Under the pieces are notes generated by a model. It saw nothing but the letters and a program-made list of their open reading frames with translations, was not told the DNA's origin and ran no database searches. This document shows, in pieces, positions 5,600 to 28,707 of a stretch of DNA of 64,000 nt. Positions within the stretch are counted from its first letter, which is position 1. Every line of letters starts with the position of its first letter. The stretch comes from a virus: positions 52,624 to 116,623 of the IMG/VR virus record IMGVR_UViG_3300031521_000021; one strand, given 5' to 3'. Both the position numbers and the translations under genes were made by a program.

Positions 5600-6420
5600 A
5601 AATACATACATAAGAGATATACATAAGAGATATACATAATTCAAACAAATTAATAAAATAAAGGAGTGTTAATTATGAATGAAATTGTTAAACTAAACAA
5701 TGAAAACTGTAATAAATGTCCTTTTAAACAATTAGAGATCGTATCTATCAATCCAGTTATAAAATCTTGTACCAGATGTAAGGAGAATTAATAAGTATGA
5801 CTGATTATGTAAGAAAAGTTCATCAAGTTTTAATAGAAGGAAAAGAAAAAATTATTATGGTTCATAAAAATATGTTATCTAAAGATGATATAAAATTAAT
5901 TAAAAAATTAGAAAAACTATATCATAAAAAGGTAAAATTAAGTTCATTACAAGAGATTATGAATAATAAAGACATTAATGTTTGTATAGTAGAATAAATC
6001 AATAGAAAGGGTGTTAGAATATGTTTTTAGGTGGGACAACTGAACAATGGATTCAATTATTACAATATTGTATTATAGTATTAGTTTTAGGAACAGGATC
6101 GGTTATATTTAGTTGTATATTGACTAATAAAATATTATATAAGAAAAGGAAAAATAATTTTAAGGCTAAGACTAAAAAGAAAAGCTATTTTATAGATGTT
6201 GCTTAGTTCTGTTAAAACAGGAACTTTAATAGATTTAAATATAATAAGTTTAGGAGGGATGACATGAATAAAAATAATATATATTTATTAATAATAGCAA
6301 TATGTGCCTTTTGTATGATATTTATTAATATGAAATAAAATACTCATATTATATGAATGTAGAATCGTCAGAGATGGCGATTTTTCTTTTACAAAATTTA
6401 AAAATATTTTCCAAAAACTA

Positions 6421-17151: not shown

Positions 17152-18078
17152 TTGATTAATATGAAAGCTAGAACAAATAAGTTACATGAATCAGCAGAAA
17201 ACTTTTTAGATTATTTACATATGAAGAATTCAAGCGAAGGAACTGTGAAGGGTTATAGAAGCAACTTAAATATTTTCTTCGACTTTATAAAGACTTACAA
17301 AAAAGTAAGAATTATTGATAATGAAATAATTGAAAATATAAAACTAACTGACCTACATGCATTTCTTAACTATGCTGAGAAAGAGTTGGCAAATAGTCCA
17401 GCTACTCGTGCAAGAAAAGTTGCTTGTTTGCAATCTTATTACAATTATATATACAAGAAAGCGAAAATAGTAAGTGAAAATGTAGCTGAAGAATTAGATA
17501 GAATAAAAATTCCAGAAAAAGAAGTAATATATTTAAACAAGGAACAATCAAAAAAATTATTAGAATCAGTAACTAAAGCTAATCGAAACTATATTAGAGA
17601 CTTATGTGTATTGACAATATTTTTAAATACAGGTTTAAGATTATCTGAATTACAAGGATTAAGAATTGATATGATAAAAGGGGATCAGCTTATTATTATA
17701 GGTAAAGGTATGAAAAAACGAGAAGTATTTTTAAATGATGAATGTTTAAATTCAATCAACAACTACTTAGAGAATAGAGATGAATATGATGTATCGGATG
17801 AAGATAAGAAATATTTATTTTTATCAATAAAAAAACGCAGAATGGCAAAAAATAGTATTGAAACCATGGTTAAAAAATATTTAAAAATGTCAGGATTTGG
17901 AGAAGAATATCATACACATACTTTGAGAGCGAGTTTTTGTACTAATGTATATAATAGTGGAAAAGTAGGAATAAAAACTGTGCGTGACCTTATGGGACAT
18001 TCTAGTATATCTACTACACAAAAATATTTAGGGGTTACAGACGAAGATAAGAGAAATGCAGTCAAGAATATATATTAA
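17152..18078 (+). CDS. XerC/XerD-family tyrosine recombinase, catalytically intact
   Basis: SAM-like N-terminus; GLRLSE (R), GKG (K), HTLR (HxxR), MGH and TQKY (Y). Confidence 0.92.
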   Translation: MINMKARTNKLHESAENFLDYLHMKNSSEGTVKGYRSNLNIFFDFIKTYKKVRIIDNEIIENIKLTDLHAFLNYAEKELANSPATRARKVACLQSYYNYIYKKAKIVSENVAEELDRIKIPEKEVIYLNKEQSKKLLESVTKANRNYIRDLCVLTIFLNTGLRLSELQGLRIDMIKGDQLIIIGKGMKKREVFLNDECLNSINNYLENRDEYDVSDEDKKYLFLSIKKRRMAKNSIETMVKKYLKMSGFGEEYHTHTLRASFCTNVYNSGKVGIKTVRDLMGHSSISTTQKYLGVTDEDKRNAVKNIY

Positions 18079-22444: not shown

Positions 22445-22473
22445 TTGCAATTATTTTTAATTTGTTATATAAT
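22445..22473 (+). promoter_or_regulatory. Promoter of the DGQHR-like / recombinase-fold operon
   Basis: TTGCAA-17-TATAAT with TTAATTTGTT in the spacer. Confidence 0.6.
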
Positions 22474-22530
22474 ATAATCATAGAAATAAATTATTTGAAA
22501 ATAACAAAATTTAATAGAGGTGAATTAATT

Positions 22531-23928
22531 ATGGAAGTAAAAACAATTAAAGAACTAATACCAGAAGAAAAACAATTTGATGTAATAGATAAAATAGTAG
22601 AAGAAGAATATGGAAATCAAAAATTAATAGATGCATTGATGGTTAAATTTAAAGAAAAGGGATTCCAAATTAGAATGGCTACAGCTTTACTAAGTGGAGA
22701 TAAGCAATGGAGTGATATTCCTGAACTTGTTAAAGTAGCCTTTGTTGAAAGTGCAAAAGAAGGTTTAGAATGGGAAATACTAGATGCAAACAAATGGTTT
22801 ACAAATGATATATTGGCAAGTTATGATACAACAATAAATGATGAACCTAAGAAAGATGTATTAAGTTTTAAAAATGCAATAAAAATAGATGACTTTAATT
22901 ATCTAATATATTGGGATTTAAAAAGTATATATGTTGGATTTAATAATGAATTATATATTTATAATTATGAAACTCAACGTGAGCCAGAATATAAAACAAT
23001 AGGAACGAGAAAAAAACCTATAATGACTTATTCATTAAATCCAAAAGCCGTGGATGAGATAGCTAGAGATATAATTAGTGGCGAATATGAAGAAGATATG
23101 TTAATATATAATGTTCTTTTAAAGAATCAAAAAATAACACCACAAGTAAGTATTAAAGAAACAAAACAAGAAGGAATTGTTGATATTGAAGTTGTTCCCA
23201 ATTATCAAAGAAATTCTAAAAACTATACAATTGTAAACCCTTTGGATGGATGGCACAGAACTCAAGCTGGAATTAGGGCATATGGAATAGCATTAAAGCA
23301 AGGTATTGAATTGAAAAGAGGATTTCCATTAAAGTTAGTAATGAGAGATTTAAAAGGTGCAAAACATATCGTAGACCAAATATTCAAAAGAAATGATACC
23401 AGTAGACAATGGACTCACAATTTGGCTAGTACTGATTATAATGAATTTATAGAATTATTAATTAATTCATCTAAAATACTTCAAGGTAAAGTTGTTACAA
23501 CATATGATGAATACATGGCAATTCCTAGCATAACTTATTCTTATATATTAAGTGTTGCTACAGAAAGATTTACAACTATTCCTGTAAATAGTAAACTTCA
23601 AAGAAAAATGGTTGCAGAAGGCATTGCTAATATTATTGATATGATTTTTGATTATCTATTGATGAAATATAAAGATATGAAAAATTTGATAGAACAGACT
23701 CATCTTGTAGAACCGAATGTTTTTGTAGGTTATTTAGCTATAGCCGAACAAGTAAGAGAGCATGAAGACAAGTATGAAGATTATGTAATTAAAATAGGTG
23801 AAAAATTATGTTTATTAACAGAAGAACAACTAAAACCATTAAAATTAACATATAAAAATTTTAATTCTCAAGATGTGTATAAATTTTTTGAAAAAATTGC
23901 TAAAGAGGTGATTAATAGTGAAGAATAA
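22531..23928 (+). CDS. DGQHR/DndB (ParB-Srx fold) protein, SPbeta YopQ-like by context
   Basis: YETQRE and PLDGWHRT motifs; RBS gaggtg before ATG 22531; coupled to recombinase-fold gene. Confidence 0.6.
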   Translation: MEVKTIKELIPEEKQFDVIDKIVEEEYGNQKLIDALMVKFKEKGFQIRMATALLSGDKQWSDIPELVKVAFVESAKEGLEWEILDANKWFTNDILASYDTTINDEPKKDVLSFKNAIKIDDFNYLIYWDLKSIYVGFNNELYIYNYETQREPEYKTIGTRKKPIMTYSLNPKAVDEIARDIISGEYEEDMLIYNVLLKNQKITPQVSIKETKQEGIVDIEVVPNYQRNSKNYTIVNPLDGWHRTQAGIRAYGIALKQGIELKRGFPLKLVMRDLKGAKHIVDQIFKRNDTSRQWTHNLASTDYNEFIELLINSSKILQGKVVTTYDEYMAIPSITYSYILSVATERFTTIPVNSKLQRKMVAEGIANIIDMIFDYLLMKYKDMKNLIEQTHLVEPNVFVGYLAIAEQVREHEDKYEDYVIKIGEKLCLLTEEQLKPLKLTYKNFNSQDVYKFFEKIAKEVINSEE

Positions 23929-25081
23929 ATATTTTGTAGGAAAAGAATATCACACATTAAAAGAAAAAAATGACATTTTAGAAAGTTATGATAAACTATA
24001 TAAAAATAAACTAGATTTTTTAAATGAATTATATGATAATCAAAATACTTTGAAAAGATTATGGTCTACTTATATAAGACATATTCATCAACATGAATTA
24101 TTATTAGAAAAAGATGCTATGTTTTTTGATGAAAATGAAGTAGATGAAGTTATAGCAAGCAAATTTACCTATTCATCTTCAACTAAACAAGGAATGTTAT
24201 TCTTCATTAAAACTTATAAAACTTGGGGAATGGACAGAGGAGATATCCAAGGAAATAGTGCCGAAACATTAAATAAGAAAAATACAACTAAAACTTCAAA
24301 GAAAATTTTAGAAAATAAGTTATGGGGATTAGGAGAATTTTATAATCTATTGGTAGAAATAGAAAAGAAATCTACTTTTATTGGTGGAATAGCATTTCTT
24401 TTAGTTAGATATGGAATCGCAGGAAAACAATTAATTTATACTAGAAATGTTAGATGGGAAGATATTGATTATGAAAAAAAACAAGTTCATATAATTAATG
24501 AGAATGAGAAACTTGTTAGAATCGTTGATGTAGATGATAGATTTTTAGAATGGATAGATAAATATAAGAATGAAAAGTATCCAGCAGGTATTTCTTCAGG
24601 ACGTATAATAGAAAAATCAAAACATTCTAGAAATGGAGATATAATTGAAAATTATAATACTATGAATAATAGAACTTTTAAAATTGCTAAAGATTTAATG
24701 ATACCTAGAATATCTTTTGGAGATGTATTTAAATCAAGATATATGGATATGTTATTAGAAATTAGAGCAACTAGAAGATTAACCACAGATGACTTTGAAT
24801 GGGTGTTAATGAATTTTAGTGATAAATCTGCTAATATGACGATATATAATCTAAGAGAAATGTATGAGACAATAGCAAAAGAAGATGTTATAATGAAAAA
24901 TAATTTAAGTCAGCCAACAAAATCACTTAAAGATCCCCATGCAAAAGAATTTGTAGAGAAATTACGCAAAGAAATGGGATATGAGGAATTTATAAATGGT
25001 GAAGATAAGTTTAACAACAAAGAAATAGAGTCAGAAGTACAAAAAGAAGTAAGTGCTGATTTAGATAAGGTTGAAAATTAG
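23918..25081 (+). CDS. Tyrosine-recombinase-fold protein with degenerate active site; candidate master repressor (YopR/MrpR-like)
   Basis: LLVRYGIAGKQL..VRWEDIDYEKKQVHI integrase-like segment; no canonical HxxR/GH/Y set visible. Confidence 0.6.
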   Translation: MKNKYFVGKEYHTLKEKNDILESYDKLYKNKLDFLNELYDNQNTLKRLWSTYIRHIHQHELLLEKDAMFFDENEVDEVIASKFTYSSSTKQGMLFFIKTYKTWGMDRGDIQGNSAETLNKKNTTKTSKKILENKLWGLGEFYNLLVEIEKKSTFIGGIAFLLVRYGIAGKQLIYTRNVRWEDIDYEKKQVHIINENEKLVRIVDVDDRFLEWIDKYKNEKYPAGISSGRIIEKSKHSRNGDIIENYNTMNNRTFKIAKDLMIPRISFGDVFKSRYMDMLLEIRATRRLTTDDFEWVLMNFSDKSANMTIYNLREMYETIAKEDVIMKNNLSQPTKSLKDPHAKEFVEKLRKEMGYEEFINGEDKFNNKEIESEVQKEVSADLDKVEN

Positions 25082-25191
25082 GTTGGAGCAAGTATCCATC
25101 CTTTTTTTGTTTGATTATATGGCTTAAACACTAGATTTGTGAGGGTATTAAAATAAATTAATATAAATATGAATTATTTTTAGAAAAAGTG

Positions 25192-25398
25192 TTGACAATA
25201 TATTCCGTAGGGTGTAATATAGAGTCATGGAAGAGATAAAAACAAATTAATAGAGAAACAAAAAAACATTTGAAAAAGTATTGACAGACTTGGAAACAAG
25301 TAGTAAACTAATATTCATAGGGAACAAGTTAATAAATTAAAACAATAAAAGAAAAAATATAAAAAAGTATTGACAGTGTTACCAAGTAGTGGTAAGAT
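25192..25398 (+). promoter_or_regulatory. Three tandem sigmaA promoters, 89-bp period
   Basis: TTGACA at 25192, 25281 and 25370, each 17 bp from TAATAT, TAAACT and TAAGAT. Confidence 0.8.
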
Positions 25399-25481
25399 AA
25401 GATTATAGAAATGAAATAGATTAATAGAAATAAAAAAGTAATTTTAAAGGGAAATTAAAAAAATTTATTAATTAAAGGAAG

Positions 25482-26258
25482 GTGGTCAGTATGTTAGATT
25501 TTAAAGAGCAACTGATGGCAATTAAGACAGAAATGGATAAAAAAGAATTAAAGAGTGATAAAATAATAGAAACAAAAGAAATTGTACATAGTAACATTAA
25601 TAATCATAAAACTATGTATAATACTGAAAATAAAAAGATAATAGTTCGTCGTGCTGAGGTATACTGGAGTGACCTTCAAGGGTCTCAAGGATCAGAACAG
25701 GGAGGAGAAAGACCAGTTTTAATAATTCAAAATGATGTTGGTAATACATACAGTCCAACTACAATAGTAGCTGTTATCACATCTCAATTAACTAAAGCAA
25801 AACTTCCTGTACATGTAGAATTGCAGAAAGAAATAAATAATATGCCACAAGATTCAGTAATATTATTTGAGCAAATAAGAACATTAGATAAGAGAAGATT
25901 AAAAGATAAAATATGTGAATTAGATGAATTAATGATGAAAAAAATTGACAAGGCAATAGGAACTTCTTTGGGTATAAAAGTAGCTGAACCAGAACAGGAA
26001 AAAACTTCAAAAACAGAAAAGGCTCCATTAGAAAAATTACATGAAAAATTGAGAAATAAAATTGAAGAAATGTTAGATGATATATATACTTATGAAAAGG
26101 CTTTATGTAAAACAAGAAACGAAAGTTTAAGAAATAATTTAATTGAACAAAGAGAAGCGTTTTTATGGTTACTACAAAATTTTTGTGAAAATAATAAATT
26201 AAACTATAGAGATTATTATAAAAAATATAATCCAGAAAGAGAGACAGTTGCTATGTAA
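25482..26258 (+). CDS. mazF: MazF/PemK (NdoA/EndoA-like) endoribonuclease with N- and C-terminal extensions
   Basis: RRAEVYWSDL..SQGSEQGGERPVLIIQNDVGN.YSPTTIVAVIT...KAKLPVHVEL...DSVILFEQIRTLDKRRL. Confidence 0.93.
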   Translation: MVSMLDFKEQLMAIKTEMDKKELKSDKIIETKEIVHSNINNHKTMYNTENKKIIVRRAEVYWSDLQGSQGSEQGGERPVLIIQNDVGNTYSPTTIVAVITSQLTKAKLPVHVELQKEINNMPQDSVILFEQIRTLDKRRLKDKICELDELMMKKIDKAIGTSLGIKVAEPEQEKTSKTEKAPLEKLHEKLRNKIEEMLDDIYTYEKALCKTRNESLRNNLIEQREAFLWLLQNFCENNKLNYRDYYKKYNPERETVAM

Positions 26259-26286
26259 AATAAAAATATGAAGTGGGTGCAATAAG

Positions 26287-26949
26287 ATGAAAACAAAGAG
26301 AACTATAAAAAAGAGGGTTTTGATAGATATATTTGATATATGGGATGATAAAATTAATGGCGGTGTTTATATTGCAAGAGATAAATTAAAAAAAATGTTT
26401 ATGACAGAATACCCATTTTTAAAATACGAAGAAATTGAAGAAAAAAGGTTAATACTTCATAATTTAACTGTGGCAGAAATAGATATTGGAAAAGAAAAAG
26501 GATTGAAAATTTATGAAATGGAATCTGTAAAATTATATACATCAATATTAAAAAACGAAATGGATAAAGTCGAAGGATATAAAGAAGGGGATACAGGTTT
26601 TTTATATGTGGGAGTTTTAAATAATTATACTGAAAGCCACAAAAAAGAATTAACAAAAAAAGAATTAATAGAAAATTATACAACATGTTATAAAATATAT
26701 GAAAAATATGAAAAGGAGAATGAATATGGACATTTATATAAATTAATAGCGAAATTTAATATCAATCTAGTAAAAGGAAATTTTTCCATACTTCTCAATA
26801 TACTTGAGGAGTTGATACATAATAATGATGATACTGAATATAAAAGAAGTTTTAATGAATTAGAAAGGGAATTAAAAGAAACAAATAGCTTATTATATCA
26901 AAGAGTATCAACATTATTAAAACTAAATAAAAAATTGGAAATAATATAA
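26287..26949 (+). CDS. Helical (possibly TPR-like) protein; candidate peptide receptor or antitoxin
   Basis: Amphipathic helical composition; lies between mazF and the secreted peptide gene. Confidence 0.45.
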   Translation: MKTKRTIKKRVLIDIFDIWDDKINGGVYIARDKLKKMFMTEYPFLKYEEIEEKRLILHNLTVAEIDIGKEKGLKIYEMESVKLYTSILKNEMDKVEGYKEGDTGFLYVGVLNNYTESHKKELTKKELIENYTTCYKIYEKYEKENEYGHLYKLIAKFNINLVKGNFSILLNILEELIHNNDDTEYKRSFNELERELKETNSLLYQRVSTLLKLNKKLEII

Positions 26950-26955
26950 GACAAA

Positions 26956-27026
26956 TCTTTCATATATGTATCAATTAATATAGATGTAATTAAAAAAATC
27001 TATATTAACAATACATATATGAAAGA
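26956..27026 (+). repeat. Long inverted repeat overlapping the peptide RBS region
   Basis: TCTTTCATATATGTAT / ATACATATATGAAAGA (16 bp) plus inner TTAATATAGAT / ATCTATATTAA (11 bp). Confidence 0.85.
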
Positions 27027-27036
27027 GGTGAAACGA

Positions 27037-27141
27037 ATGAAAAAAAGAACTATAAAGGCAACCTTAATAGTAATAGCTATATATGCAACTATGATTTTAT
27101 CAACAATTGTTGCAAGCGCTGGTAGTATAGGGAGAGGATAA
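27037..27141 (+). CDS. 34-aa secreted signalling pre-peptide (AimP/Phr-like), predicted mature GSIGRG
   Basis: MKKRTIKATLIVIAIYATMILSTIVASA|GSIGRG*; RBS gaggtg; basic n-region, hydrophobic h-region, A-x-A cleavage site. Confidence 0.8.
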   Translation: MKKRTIKATLIVIAIYATMILSTIVASAGSIGRG

Positions 27142-27159
27142 TTAAGTACATAAGACAAA

Positions 27160-27195
27160 AAAGAGTAGACAGATAGTTTTGTCTACTCTTTAAAA
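27160..27195 (+). terminator. Intrinsic terminator after the peptide gene
   Basis: AAAGAGTAGACA-loop-TGTCTACTCTTT. Confidence 0.75.
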
Positions 27196-27233: not shown

Positions 27234-27262
27234 TTGACTTCTTAAAGTGGTAGGATTATACT
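27234..27262 (+). promoter_or_regulatory. sigmaA promoter downstream of the peptide gene
   Basis: TTGACT-17-TATACT, flanked by AATAAATTAA motifs. Confidence 0.7.
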
Positions 27263-27456
27263 ATCAATATAAATAAATTAACAGAAATGAGGTGAAATGA
27301 AATGATAAAAGTTATAATATTTACATTTGGATTAATGGTATTAAACAACTTGGTAAAAATACATATGAAATCGGATATAATTGAACAAGCTATATTAGAT
27401 GAACTTAAGATAATAAAGTAGCAGTTAACGAATTAAAGAAAAAACTAGGAGGATAT

Positions 27457-28707
27457 ATGGATAATACAGACTATAAAAAACTCTATAATGAAGTAAAAAA
27501 AGAATTACAATTAAATAAGAGAACAATAGAAAAATCAAATCTTAAATTAAATAAGTATTATAATGATAATAAGGAAAGAGATGATTTTATTCAAAATTTA
27601 AAAGCAGAGATTACAAATCTAAATAAAATCATAGAGGACAAAGATAATTACAATAAAATAAAAGATGTGAAAATTATTGAATTATCAAGTATGAATCAAG
27701 GGATAGATACTATAATTGTAAGTAATAATAAGTTAAAAAAAGAAATAAATAAACAACAACATGTAATTGATAAATTACAATCTGAAAGCAAGAAAATTAA
27801 TATATTAAGCAATGATGATAAAGATAAATTAAAAAAGATCATTAATCAAAATAAAAGTCTATCAAATGAAATATTAGGATTAAAAAATAAGAATGAGTCA
27901 TTGAAAAACTCATTAGAGGAACTGTTAAAAGAAAAAGATAGCTTTATAAATGTTCATACGAAAAAATTTAATAATTCTATATCTAGAATAATACATATGC
28001 TAAATTACAATCTGTCAATCAATAATGTTGAAGGTTATAGAAATATTAACTCTTTAGCAAGAAGGGTTGAAATATTTTTAGAAAGAAAAGATAAATATAA
28101 GCAAACCACAGATAATAATTTTACTGAAATAAGTAAAGAAGTATTGTTTGGATATGTATTTGAGGATTATAACAAAGCAACTTTTATAGATGTTGAAGGA
28201 AATAAATATTTAATTAGAGAATTAATTGGAAAAGTAAATATGGATGTTCCTGCGAAAGCAATATTAACAAGCGAAAATAGTGTAATTATAAAAGAATTTT
28301 ACAATGGAGATGTTATTGATATAAGTACAGATATTAAAAAATATAAAAAAGATGATAAGAATAAAACCGAAGAAGAAATACTTGATAAAATAAAAGAAGA
28401 TATAGTTCCAATTAATGATTGTAGTGTATTAATTGTTACTGGAAGAAATGAAAAACATTATAAAAAGTATTTAGAATTATATGGTTTAAATATAACAACT
28501 TTTAATCCATTTGAGGAAAATATAAATTTGTTACCTGAAAAGATTAAATCACAAGATGTTATAATTATAATGAAGAATGCAGTATCTCATGATGTTATGA
28601 AAAAGATAGATATATCTGATAATAAAATTCAAGTAATAGGAAGAGATAATATAAAATATATAGTTGCTAGAATAAGATACTATATAATAAACAATAAATT
28701 AATATAA
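27457..28707 (+). CDS. Coiled-coil protein with C-terminal DUF2325-like domain
   Basis: Heptad-rich N-half; VLIVTG...DVIIIMKNAVSHD C-terminus. Confidence 0.55.
   Translation: MDNTDYKKLYNEVKKELQLNKRTIEKSNLKLNKYYNDNKERDDFIQNLKAEITNLNKIIEDKDNYNKIKDVKIIELSSMNQGIDTIIVSNNKLKKEINKQQHVIDKLQSESKKINILSNDDKDKLKKIINQNKSLSNEILGLKNKNESLKNSLEELLKEKDSFINVHTKKFNNSISRIIHMLNYNLSINNVEGYRNINSLARRVEIFLERKDKYKQTTDNNFTEISKEVLFGYVFEDYNKATFIDVEGNKYLIRELIGKVNMDVPAKAILTSENSVIIKEFYNGDVIDISTDIKKYKKDDKNKTEEEILDKIKEDIVPINDCSVLIVTGRNEKHYKKYLELYGLNITTFNPFEENINLLPEKIKSQDVIIIMKNAVSHDVMKKIDISDNKIQVIGRDNIKYIVARIRYYIINNKLI

Follow-up and report, generated by a model that had tools for sequence, protein, structure and literature searches.

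In the arbitrium system of phage phi3T, AimR and AimP control AimX, AimX and YosL inactivate the MazF of the host, and MazF promotes lysogeny, according to a report on that phage (PMC10769878). According to a 2026 review, arbitrium-like systems occur in phages of Bacillales (PMC13389391); the receptors described so far are of the AimR family, and the link to MazF, which came to light only recently, involves several small phage proteins together with a host toxin–antitoxin pair. More broadly, tetratricopeptide-repeat (TPR) proteins adjoining open reading frames (ORFs) for secreted peptides are described as the signature of RRNPP systems, and Rap-Phr as occurring in phages (PMC10075063). Here we analyse a 64,000-nt stretch of viral DNA (the window, to which coordinates refer unless a locus is named), bases 52624–116623 of the 116,623-bp IMG/VR record IMGVR_UViG_3300031521_000021 (CheckV completeness 47%). 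It holds a compact operon (25491–27191, + strand) of mazF, a gene for a 220-aa TPR protein, an ORF for a 34-aa putative signal-peptide precursor and a terminator. We are confident of the operon and of these gene identities, and we give a probability of about 0.5 to the reading of the whole module as a lysis–lysogeny device in which a peptide-gated, Rap-like TPR protein controls a phage MazF. As to its parts, peptide signalling through the TPR protein is fairly likely, and direct control of MazF by that protein is tentative. The richness of phi3T and SPbeta in MazF sites and the control of host MazF by arbitrium are already published; what is new is the compact mazF-TPR-peptide operon, together with UACAUA as the top enrichment in this phage and its relatives. 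The loci compared are the window, L002 (IMG/VR, 194 kb), L003 (metagenome, 28.6 kb) and L005 (IMG/VR, 218 kb); L004, which equals L005 with one mismatch over ~5 kb around the locus, was not counted as distinct.

The locus resembles arbitrium in that the signal would be the C-terminal six residues of its precursor and contains an R-G motif (SAIRGA in AimP, GSIGRG here), in that the module lies beside yopQ/yopR (sroE/sroF)-like genes, and in that the peptide gene precedes a terminator with a small ORF beyond it. MazF sites abound in the transcripts of both phages, with a lysogeny-promoting MazF effector shown for phi3T and proposed here. The original prediction held the 220-aa protein to be much shorter than AimR and to lack an evident helix-turn-helix (HTH), and this is borne out: AimR has 378 aa, and the model described below has no HTH. 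The two show no detectable sequence relation. Further differences are a precursor of 34 aa without a pro-region, as against 43 aa for AimP; a phage-encoded MazF with a C-terminal handle, in place of the MazF of the host; a position downstream of the sro-like genes, where arbitrium phages have the module upstream; and the phage itself, which has 25% GC, a genome of ~250 kb and an origin in peat metagenomes. No homologue of MazE, AimX or YosL was identified for this module. A 39-aa ORF directly after the operon terminator occupies the place of aimX in phi3T, and a terminator followed by this ORF is found in three of the four loci, but this ORF stands behind a separate promoter-like site, and the receptor lacks any nucleic-acid-binding domain. 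The 220-aa protein does not have the make-up of an AimR homologue (HTH plus TPR, ~380 aa), and the system is not a member of the AimR family.

With Rap-Phr the module would share a TPR receptor that lacks a DNA-binding domain and inhibits another protein until a C-terminal oligopeptide is imported and brings about release. It differs in showing no sequence similarity, in that Phr precursors have a pro-region, and in its presumed target, a toxin RNase. Rap proteins are ~380 aa long and have an N-terminal helix bundle. PlcR-PapR provides the best RRNPP structural match, and its signal is the C-terminus of a secreted small precursor, as predicted here, but PlcR is a transcription factor with an N-terminal HTH. 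At the level of the modelled fold, the 220-aa protein has a TPR-type receptor domain as in RRNPP systems, and an adjacent propeptide ORF on the same strand with a predicted export signal is present in all four loci. The default settings of RRNPP_detector ask for a receptor of 250–500 aa and a match to a TPR hidden Markov model (PMC10075063), so the present receptor would be skipped, being below that window and without such a match. The mazF-TPR-peptide arrangement is undescribed in the full-text literature searched, which did not cover the supplementary tables of the cited papers. We conclude that the module would be arbitrium-like in working and Rap-Phr-like in logic, that its receptor is PlcR-like in modelled fold, and that it belongs to no described RRNPP subfamily.

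The original prediction, made from the DNA letters, described mazF, a 28-nt gap, a 220-aa ORF, an unlisted small ORF and a terminator, and every one of these features is present. The mazF ORF (25482–26258) begins with GTG; a better start is the ATG at 25491, which lies behind AAGGAAGGTGG and gives a protein of 255 aa. Residues 56–162 match PF02452 PemK_toxin (E 2.8e-31, 108 bits; cut-off 23.1), PHROGs assigns the protein to phrog_1936 ('MazF-like growth inhibitor'), and residues 51–162 align with S. aureus MazF and Bacillus PemK/EndoA over the whole length of their structures (E 3e-38). The GG-x-RP and I-T-S/A segments, in which we place the catalytic Arg and Thr known from EndoA, are both retained, as alignment to 4hke and 7bxy indicates. 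The protein is thus assigned to the MazF/PemK family by fold, sequence and conserved segments, with a core closely related to that of MazEF (B. subtilis EndoA/EndoAI), and judged by its sequence this core is intact. The claim that the phage has its own MazF stood in so far as a PemK is phage-encoded, but the protein is not a plain one: it consists of an N-terminal helix and variable linker (residues 1–49), the PemK core (50–162), which has been exchanged, a second linker and a conserved C-terminal helical hairpin (~178–255, encoded at 26022–26255). In the AlphaFold2 model (8 sequences; mean predicted local distance difference test score, pLDDT, 69.5) both linkers are disordered, and the C-terminal helices 185–207 and 211–234 have pLDDT 80–90. 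When the C-extension was used alone as a query it retrieved six proteins, all PemK fusions of 255–279 aa and all on contigs equal in size to contigs with TPR homologues; a protein-atlas search with it gave only generic helical-hairpin look-alikes. Compared with MazEF, the extra N- and C-terminal regions are peculiar to this MazF, its TPR partner lies downstream, and there is no MazE upstream, so that the adjacent antitoxin of a type II MazEF is missing. That MazF would stand without MazE had been predicted, and we found no + strand ORF of at least 27 aa in the 400-nt spacer upstream of mazF (25082–25481) and no match to PF04014 in the 116.6-kb record, which is 47% complete and in which ribbon-helix-helix-type antitoxins were not searched for.

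The gene that follows mazF after 28 nt encodes a protein whose AlphaFold2 model (17-sequence alignment) has ten helices, with pLDDT 90.1 and a predicted template modelling (TM) score of 0.85. The structure check that accompanied the original prediction thus returned a TPR-type fold. In Foldseek the top rows were mostly TPR proteins (KLC, NASP, BamD, MamA), with other helical repeats among them, at E 0.06–0.3 and TM up to 0.56. Exhaustive structural searching (VIA) gave Z 12.7 to 4y6w, a KLC-like TPR, and Z 11.2 to PlcR-PapR (2qfc), with 178 residues placed on PlcR 104–286, that is, on the TPR domain and not the HTH, at 7% sequence identity. On this model the protein is an all-TPR solenoid without an HTH, of the size of the PlcR TPR domain. 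Since the TPR fold leaves no room beside it, the protein would have no DNA-binding domain.

Sequence searches placed the 220-aa protein in no known family. It matched no Pfam family at E ≤0.1 save chance-level RhoGAP and DiSB, nothing in PHROG, NCBIfam or PADLOC, and only chance-level rows (E 0.25 and 0.51) in a PDB profile search; a protein-atlas feature match to a ComR_TPR cluster (0.90, rank 23) is a lead only. By tblastn it was absent from named phages and plasmids, and in 185,579 species-representative genomes none of 27 pattern matches to the TPR alignment, and none of 118 to the MazF alignment, was confirmed. The family is very small and uniform, with 16 relatives of 207–229 aa in a set of 5.8 billion proteins and 22 representative clusters among 1.84 billion proteins. 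Its invariant residues include R54, N59, Y98, Y107, Y114, N158 and H178. When MazF (8-row alignment) and the TPR protein (17-row alignment) were modelled as a complex, the scores were 0.11 and 0.02, which weighs neither way.

The small ORF begins after a spacer of 87 nt, at an inner ATG (27037) that lies 7 nt after GAGGTG. The original prediction saw in it a signal peptide from which an A-x-A site would release six residues, and its architecture agrees: the 34-aa product has an n-region with four K/R, an 18-residue hydrophobic core, ASA and then GSIGRG (codons at 27121–27138), cleavage after ASA being predicted by the −3/−1 AxA rule. To set this against chance we applied a filter (a K/R n-region, 15–24 hydrophobic residues, AxA and a tail of 4–10 residues) to the 269 Met-started sub-ORFs of 25–60 aa in the six frames of the window, and only this ORF, with two nested starts, passed. 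Equivalent ORFs are present in the other loci, each starting (at the inner ATG preceded by a Shine-Dalgarno sequence) 69–87 nt past the TPR stop codon in all four, each with two to four K/R, an 18-residue hydrophobic region, AxA and a tail of six or seven residues ending in RG: GSIGRG after ASA in the window, GTSTRG after AMA in L002, TGSPRG after AWA in L003 and TTGSGRG after AFA in L005. In each locus this is the sole + strand ORF of 25–60 aa that ends in RG and a stop codon. The DNA of this region in the window and L002 does not align with that in L003 and L005, and the frame, the Shine-Dalgarno sequence and the architecture are retained despite that divergence. We reasoned that the ORF is not a product of chance, because one of 269 fits the filter and every related locus has an ORF of the same architecture. 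A constant export part, a variable tail and a constant C-terminal RG are what would be expected of a family of lineage-specific signalling peptides, and on this architecture the 34-aa precursor would be secreted and processed.

A strong hairpin of differing sequence occupies the same place before the peptide gene in all four loci (−29.9 kcal/mol in the window and −27.7, −24.7 and −29.1 in the others; z −9.0 in the window, −7.9 in L002, −3.8 in L003 and −5.8 in L005). In the window it ends in the 5′ part of the Shine-Dalgarno sequence of the peptide gene. It is a candidate for translation control, for a processing or stability element, or for a palindromic operator. We also considered a UACAU in this hairpin as a conserved MazF target; TACATA is present there in the window and L002 and not in L003 or L005, and the candidate was set aside. 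Separately, Logan contigs break at this hairpin.

The order sroE-like gene, sroF-like gene, mazF with C-extension, TPR gene and signal-peptide ORF is kept in all four distinct loci, with ~260–400 nt between the sroF-like gene and mazF. The mazF-TPR-peptide synteny with varying peptides that had been suggested as a check is therefore found in four of four. Identity of the TPR protein to that of the window is 61%, 54% and 34% in the three other loci. IMG/VR scans with the TPR and with the MazF alignment led to the identical three other contigs, and a scan with the sroF-like alignment gave two loci from 156 pattern matches, all of the same lineage. The metagenome scan covered at least 591 stretches and gave at least one locus; more may exist.

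Across eight MazF/TPR pairs (in four further cases the pairing is taken from equal contig sizes) the cores fall into mosaic groups. Cores that are 91–100% identical between loci are joined to C-extensions of 42–79% identity and accompany TPR proteins of 30–71% identity: the window and c4582 have 100% identical cores and 71% identical TPR proteins, and c12582 and L005 have 91% identical cores, 42% identical C-extensions and 30% identical TPR proteins. Over the 28 pairwise comparisons, TPR identity follows C-extension identity (Spearman 0.87) and not core identity (0.26). Given that the C-extension tracks the TPR protein and the core does not, we conclude that the C-extension, the TPR gene and, by its position, the peptide gene form one inherited unit. 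The compared sequences indicate that nuclease cores are swapped between lineages, and from the mosaic of cores it follows that recombination has taken place in the linker that joins the core to the C-extension. The co-divergence would fit a C-extension that serves as docking handle for the TPR protein, and such a handle would permit the core to be swapped without rewiring the sensor.

MazFs of Bacillota (B. subtilis, L. monocytogenes, S. aureus) are reported to cut U^ACAUA (10.64898/2026.08.06.743204). We counted all sense-strand hexamers in greedily called ORFs of at least 50 aa and compared the counts with those after shuffling codon order within each gene; the ranking in this phage (G000) took in hexamers expected 15 times or more. 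TACATA occurred 95 times in this phage against 51.7 expected (z 6.1), ranking first of 1404 hexamers, and an independent run ranked it second of 1406, behind AAAGAA. In two relatives it again ranked first, with 164 against 91.7 expected in G001 (z 8.9, of 2053 hexamers) and 200 against 100.5 in G002 (z 10.5, of 2133), so that the overall excess in the three is 1.8–2.0-fold. This excess tracks transcription, being found in + genes (1.67-fold in G002, 1.44-fold in G001) and in − genes (2.22-fold and 2.02-fold). The reverse complement was not enriched (z −2.3 to 1.4), nor were the one-letter variants TACATT (z −2.4), TACATG (0.0) and TACAAA (−2.6). Among other phages, phi3T (1–50 kb) had 28 against 13.9 expected (z 4.1), a count that reproduces the MazF-site enrichment that Guler et al. 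report for phi3T and SPbeta (10.1101/2023.04.27.537455), and the SPbeta-like phage Perkons (40–90 kb) had 49 against 23.1 (z 5.8). The strictly lytic Staphylococcus phage K (60–110 kb), our sole lytic control, had 2 against 24.3 expected (z −4.6), with 34 against 26.6 for the reverse complement.

Within the loci, the sroE/sroF-like genes contain no sense TACATA in all four (10.5 kb in total), the genome-wide sense density being about 1 per kb, and the stretch of ~1.7 kb from mazF through the TPR gene to the peptide gene and terminator contains three to five per locus. The four loci are related, so that these counts do not amount to four independent trials. The single TACATA in each TPR gene, which in the window falls on the I-H-N codons ATA CAT AAT, may be a by-product of conserved residues and was given no weight. 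TACATAAGA, placed after the peptide stop codon and ahead of the terminator, is also found at 5828–5836 in L002, 5756–5764 in L003 and 5819–5827 in L005, where in the latter two it overlaps the 5′ arm of the terminator; a cut there would strip the 3′ hairpin off the operon mRNA, a possible form of feedback. From the site counts, the UACAUA enrichment would fit a MazF-based lysogeny switch, and it is possible that UACAUA content is a general genomic marker of how Bacillota phages relate to MazF.

We propose the following mechanism. Tandem promoters would drive mazF, the TPR gene and the peptide gene as one operon, and the 34-aa precursor would be exported by Sec and cut after AxA, with release of the hexapeptide GSIGRG. 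As infections rise, the peptide would be re-imported and bound by the 220-aa TPR protein, which, because it has no DNA-binding domain, would act on a protein, as Rap does. The likeliest target would be the phage's own MazF, held by its C-terminal helical hairpin, the TPR protein being in effect an antitoxin that the peptide can release; we see the TPR protein as the restrainer of MazF because it is the sole conserved candidate in the operon. MazF freed by the peptide would cut the UACAUA-rich sense transcripts of the phage and spare the sroE/sroF-like candidate repressor genes, and it would also cut the mRNA of its own operon as negative feedback. The lytic programme would thereby be shut down and lysogeny favoured. 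We infer peptide–TPR binding, TPR–MazF binding and the direction of the switch. In its complete form, as a host-independent switch in which a TPR antitoxin holds the MazF handle, a secreted hexapeptide releases it, and the genome has been selected as substrate with the candidate repressors spared, the proposal is speculative, and we would put it below even odds.

Several points weigh against a peptide-gated MazF switch. The enrichment does not prove the phage's own MazF to be the enzyme, because SPbeta-like phages that rely on host MazF are enriched too, and the assignment of UACAUA as its presumed cut site comes from its kinship to Bacillota MazFs; the cores of L002 and L005, with 37–38% identity to that of the window, could cut another site. 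TPR Z scores of 11–13 can be reached by helical repeats that have no function in common, so they speak to fold class only, and the candidate role of the 220-aa protein as peptide receptor follows from its modelled fold and its context. This protein belongs to no RRNPP subfamily or Pfam TPR family by sequence, and hhalign gave a 32-member profile of its family a probability of 0.04% against phi3T AimR, so that no relation to AimR is detectable. The tail of L005 after AxA has seven residues, not six. Co-divergence of C-extension and TPR protein would arise equally from adjacent DNA and a recombination point in the MazF linker, and four of the pairings depend on equal contig sizes. The compared loci were found by pattern scans and only four are distinct, and no RNA run was among the listed runs with near-identical DNA.

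A peptide–TPR quorum pair could be real and yet, like the Rap-Phr systems of phages, have a protein target other than MazF, be it the sroE-like protein, the sroF-like candidate repressor or a regulator of the host (for example of sporulation); MazF would then be a separately controlled effector, an anti-competitor or a defence gene that shares the operon. We regard this as rather unlikely. A receptor without an HTH needs a protein partner, of which none has been identified, the locus adjoins sroE/sroF-like genes, and the MazF core is freely exchanged, as accessory cargo would be. However, the gene for the C-extended MazF adjoins the TPR gene in every locus seen (9–28 nt apart), all six C-extension proteins lie on contigs size-matched to TPR-homologue contigs, and an intact toxin needs a neutraliser, for which the operon offers no other candidate. 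The order of a toxin gene and a tightly spaced second gene would also suit a toxin–antitoxin or superinfection-exclusion module without signalling, in which the TPR protein serves as a chaperone or as an antitoxin of unusual kind and the small ORF encodes a membrane peptide (type-I-toxin-like or holin-like). This explanation, which we hold improbable, gains from a small product that is mainly one hydrophobic helix and from the PHROGs class of phage MazF ('moron, auxiliary metabolic gene and host takeover'), but a membrane helix needs neither a conserved AxA nor a variable polar tail that always ends in RG, and the gain of UACAUA across the genome points to the transcripts of the phage itself as the substrate. 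A TPR gene beside such an ORF is, moreover, the published RRNPP signature (PMC10075063). Very improbable, in our judgement, is that the small ORF and the hairpin before it are features of a non-coding RNA (an attenuator or operator palindrome) and the peptide an AT-rich by-product. Between the window and L002 the hairpin is indeed more conserved than the ORF, but four loci with DNA too diverged to align share the frame, the strong Shine-Dalgarno sequence, the n-h-c architecture and AxA, the window contains no second ORF of this kind, and the ORF antisense to it is not retained in the other loci.

If the module is a peptide-gated MazF switch, it would offer a minimal, portable three-gene system for testing how MazF drives lysogeny, would add a class of TPR receptor that current detectors skip, and would make known a peptide-regulated antitoxin for the first time. 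The UACAUA contrast would then be a simple genomic read-out of how a phage relates to MazF, in that the site is in excess in this lineage and in temperate SPbeta-like phages and is avoided by the lytic phage K. The comparison suggests that the logic leading from a hexapeptide through MazF to lysogeny arose twice, the second time from unrelated and smaller parts in very different phages.

Table 1 Coordinates of the operon and neighbouring features in the window
Feature	Position	Strand	Evidence or remark
Tyrosine recombinase	17152–18078		PF00589, E 5e-37; ~7.5 kb upstream of module
yopQ/sroE-like ParB/DndB-type protein	22462–23928	+	phrog_5732, E 6.6e-26
yopR/sroF (MrpR)-like integrase-fold protein, candidate repressor	23918–25081	+	phrog_5830 integrase, E 7e-12
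Three tandem promoter-like modules before mazF	25152–25429	+	Period 89 bp; −35 TTGACA at 25192, 25281, 25370
MazF/PemK endoribonuclease, 255 aa	25491–26258	+	PF02452, PDB matches, AlphaFold2
TPR-only protein, 220 aa, candidate peptide receptor and MazF regulator	26287–26949	+	AlphaFold2, structure searches
Two-tier hairpin, 71 nt	26956–27026	+	16-bp and 11-bp perfect arms; RNA fold
Putative signal-peptide precursor, 34 aa	27037–27141	+	n-h-c architecture, orthologous ORFs
TACATAAGA with MazF site UACAUA	27147–27155	+	Same relative place in L002, L003, L004, L005
Terminator hairpin, end of operon	27160–27191	+	12-bp stem, 4 GC pairs
Conserved 39-aa ORF	27302–27421	+	Own promoter-like site 27234–27262; L002 5938–6057, L003 5859–5978
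416-aa protein, coiled-coil-like N-terminus, C-terminal DUF2325	27457–28707		PF10087, E 2e-9; downstream of module

The neighbours of the operon (Table 1) include the yopQ/yopR-like pair that the original prediction had named, and comparison with phi3T is compatible with both names. The yopQ/sroE-like gene matches phi3T_96, the yopQ homologue, by tblastn (22% identity, E 4e-6), and the sroF-like protein matches phi3T_97 by BLASTP in its N-terminal part only (E 6e-4) and PF22822 MrpR_N_CB below the cut-off of 27 (20.4 bits, E 8e-4). Promoter-like modules precede mazF in the other loci as well, with three in L003 (3725–3940), three in L005 (3831–4066) and two in L002 (4042–4160), spaced ~88–103 bp apart across loci. 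Each has AAAWAGTDTTGACA, with TTGACA, AAAWAGT before it and an AAYAAATTAA box upstream. In peat runs the stretch with these modules has 10–40 times the contig depth of the genes, and the module may therefore be repeated elsewhere. L002, L003 and L005 likewise have a terminator-type hairpin after the peptide gene. The product of the 39-aa ORF beyond it begins with a hydrophobic helix and invariably ends in LKIIK; the locus from which it is absent is L005.

The window has a GC content of 24.8%; in the phage record nearly all genes point in one direction and no tRNA was found. Because related records of 193,897 bp and 218,173 bp are 78% and 88% complete, the genome size of the phage is put at ~250 kb. 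Near-identical DNA is present in peat-metagenome DNA runs of many studies; four such runs gave fragmented contigs and related strains only, with no peptide-informative variant. Each of the four related records encodes at least one tyrosine recombinase, in the window at about 17533–18042 within the span given in Table 1, consistent with a temperate or plasmid-prophage lifestyle.

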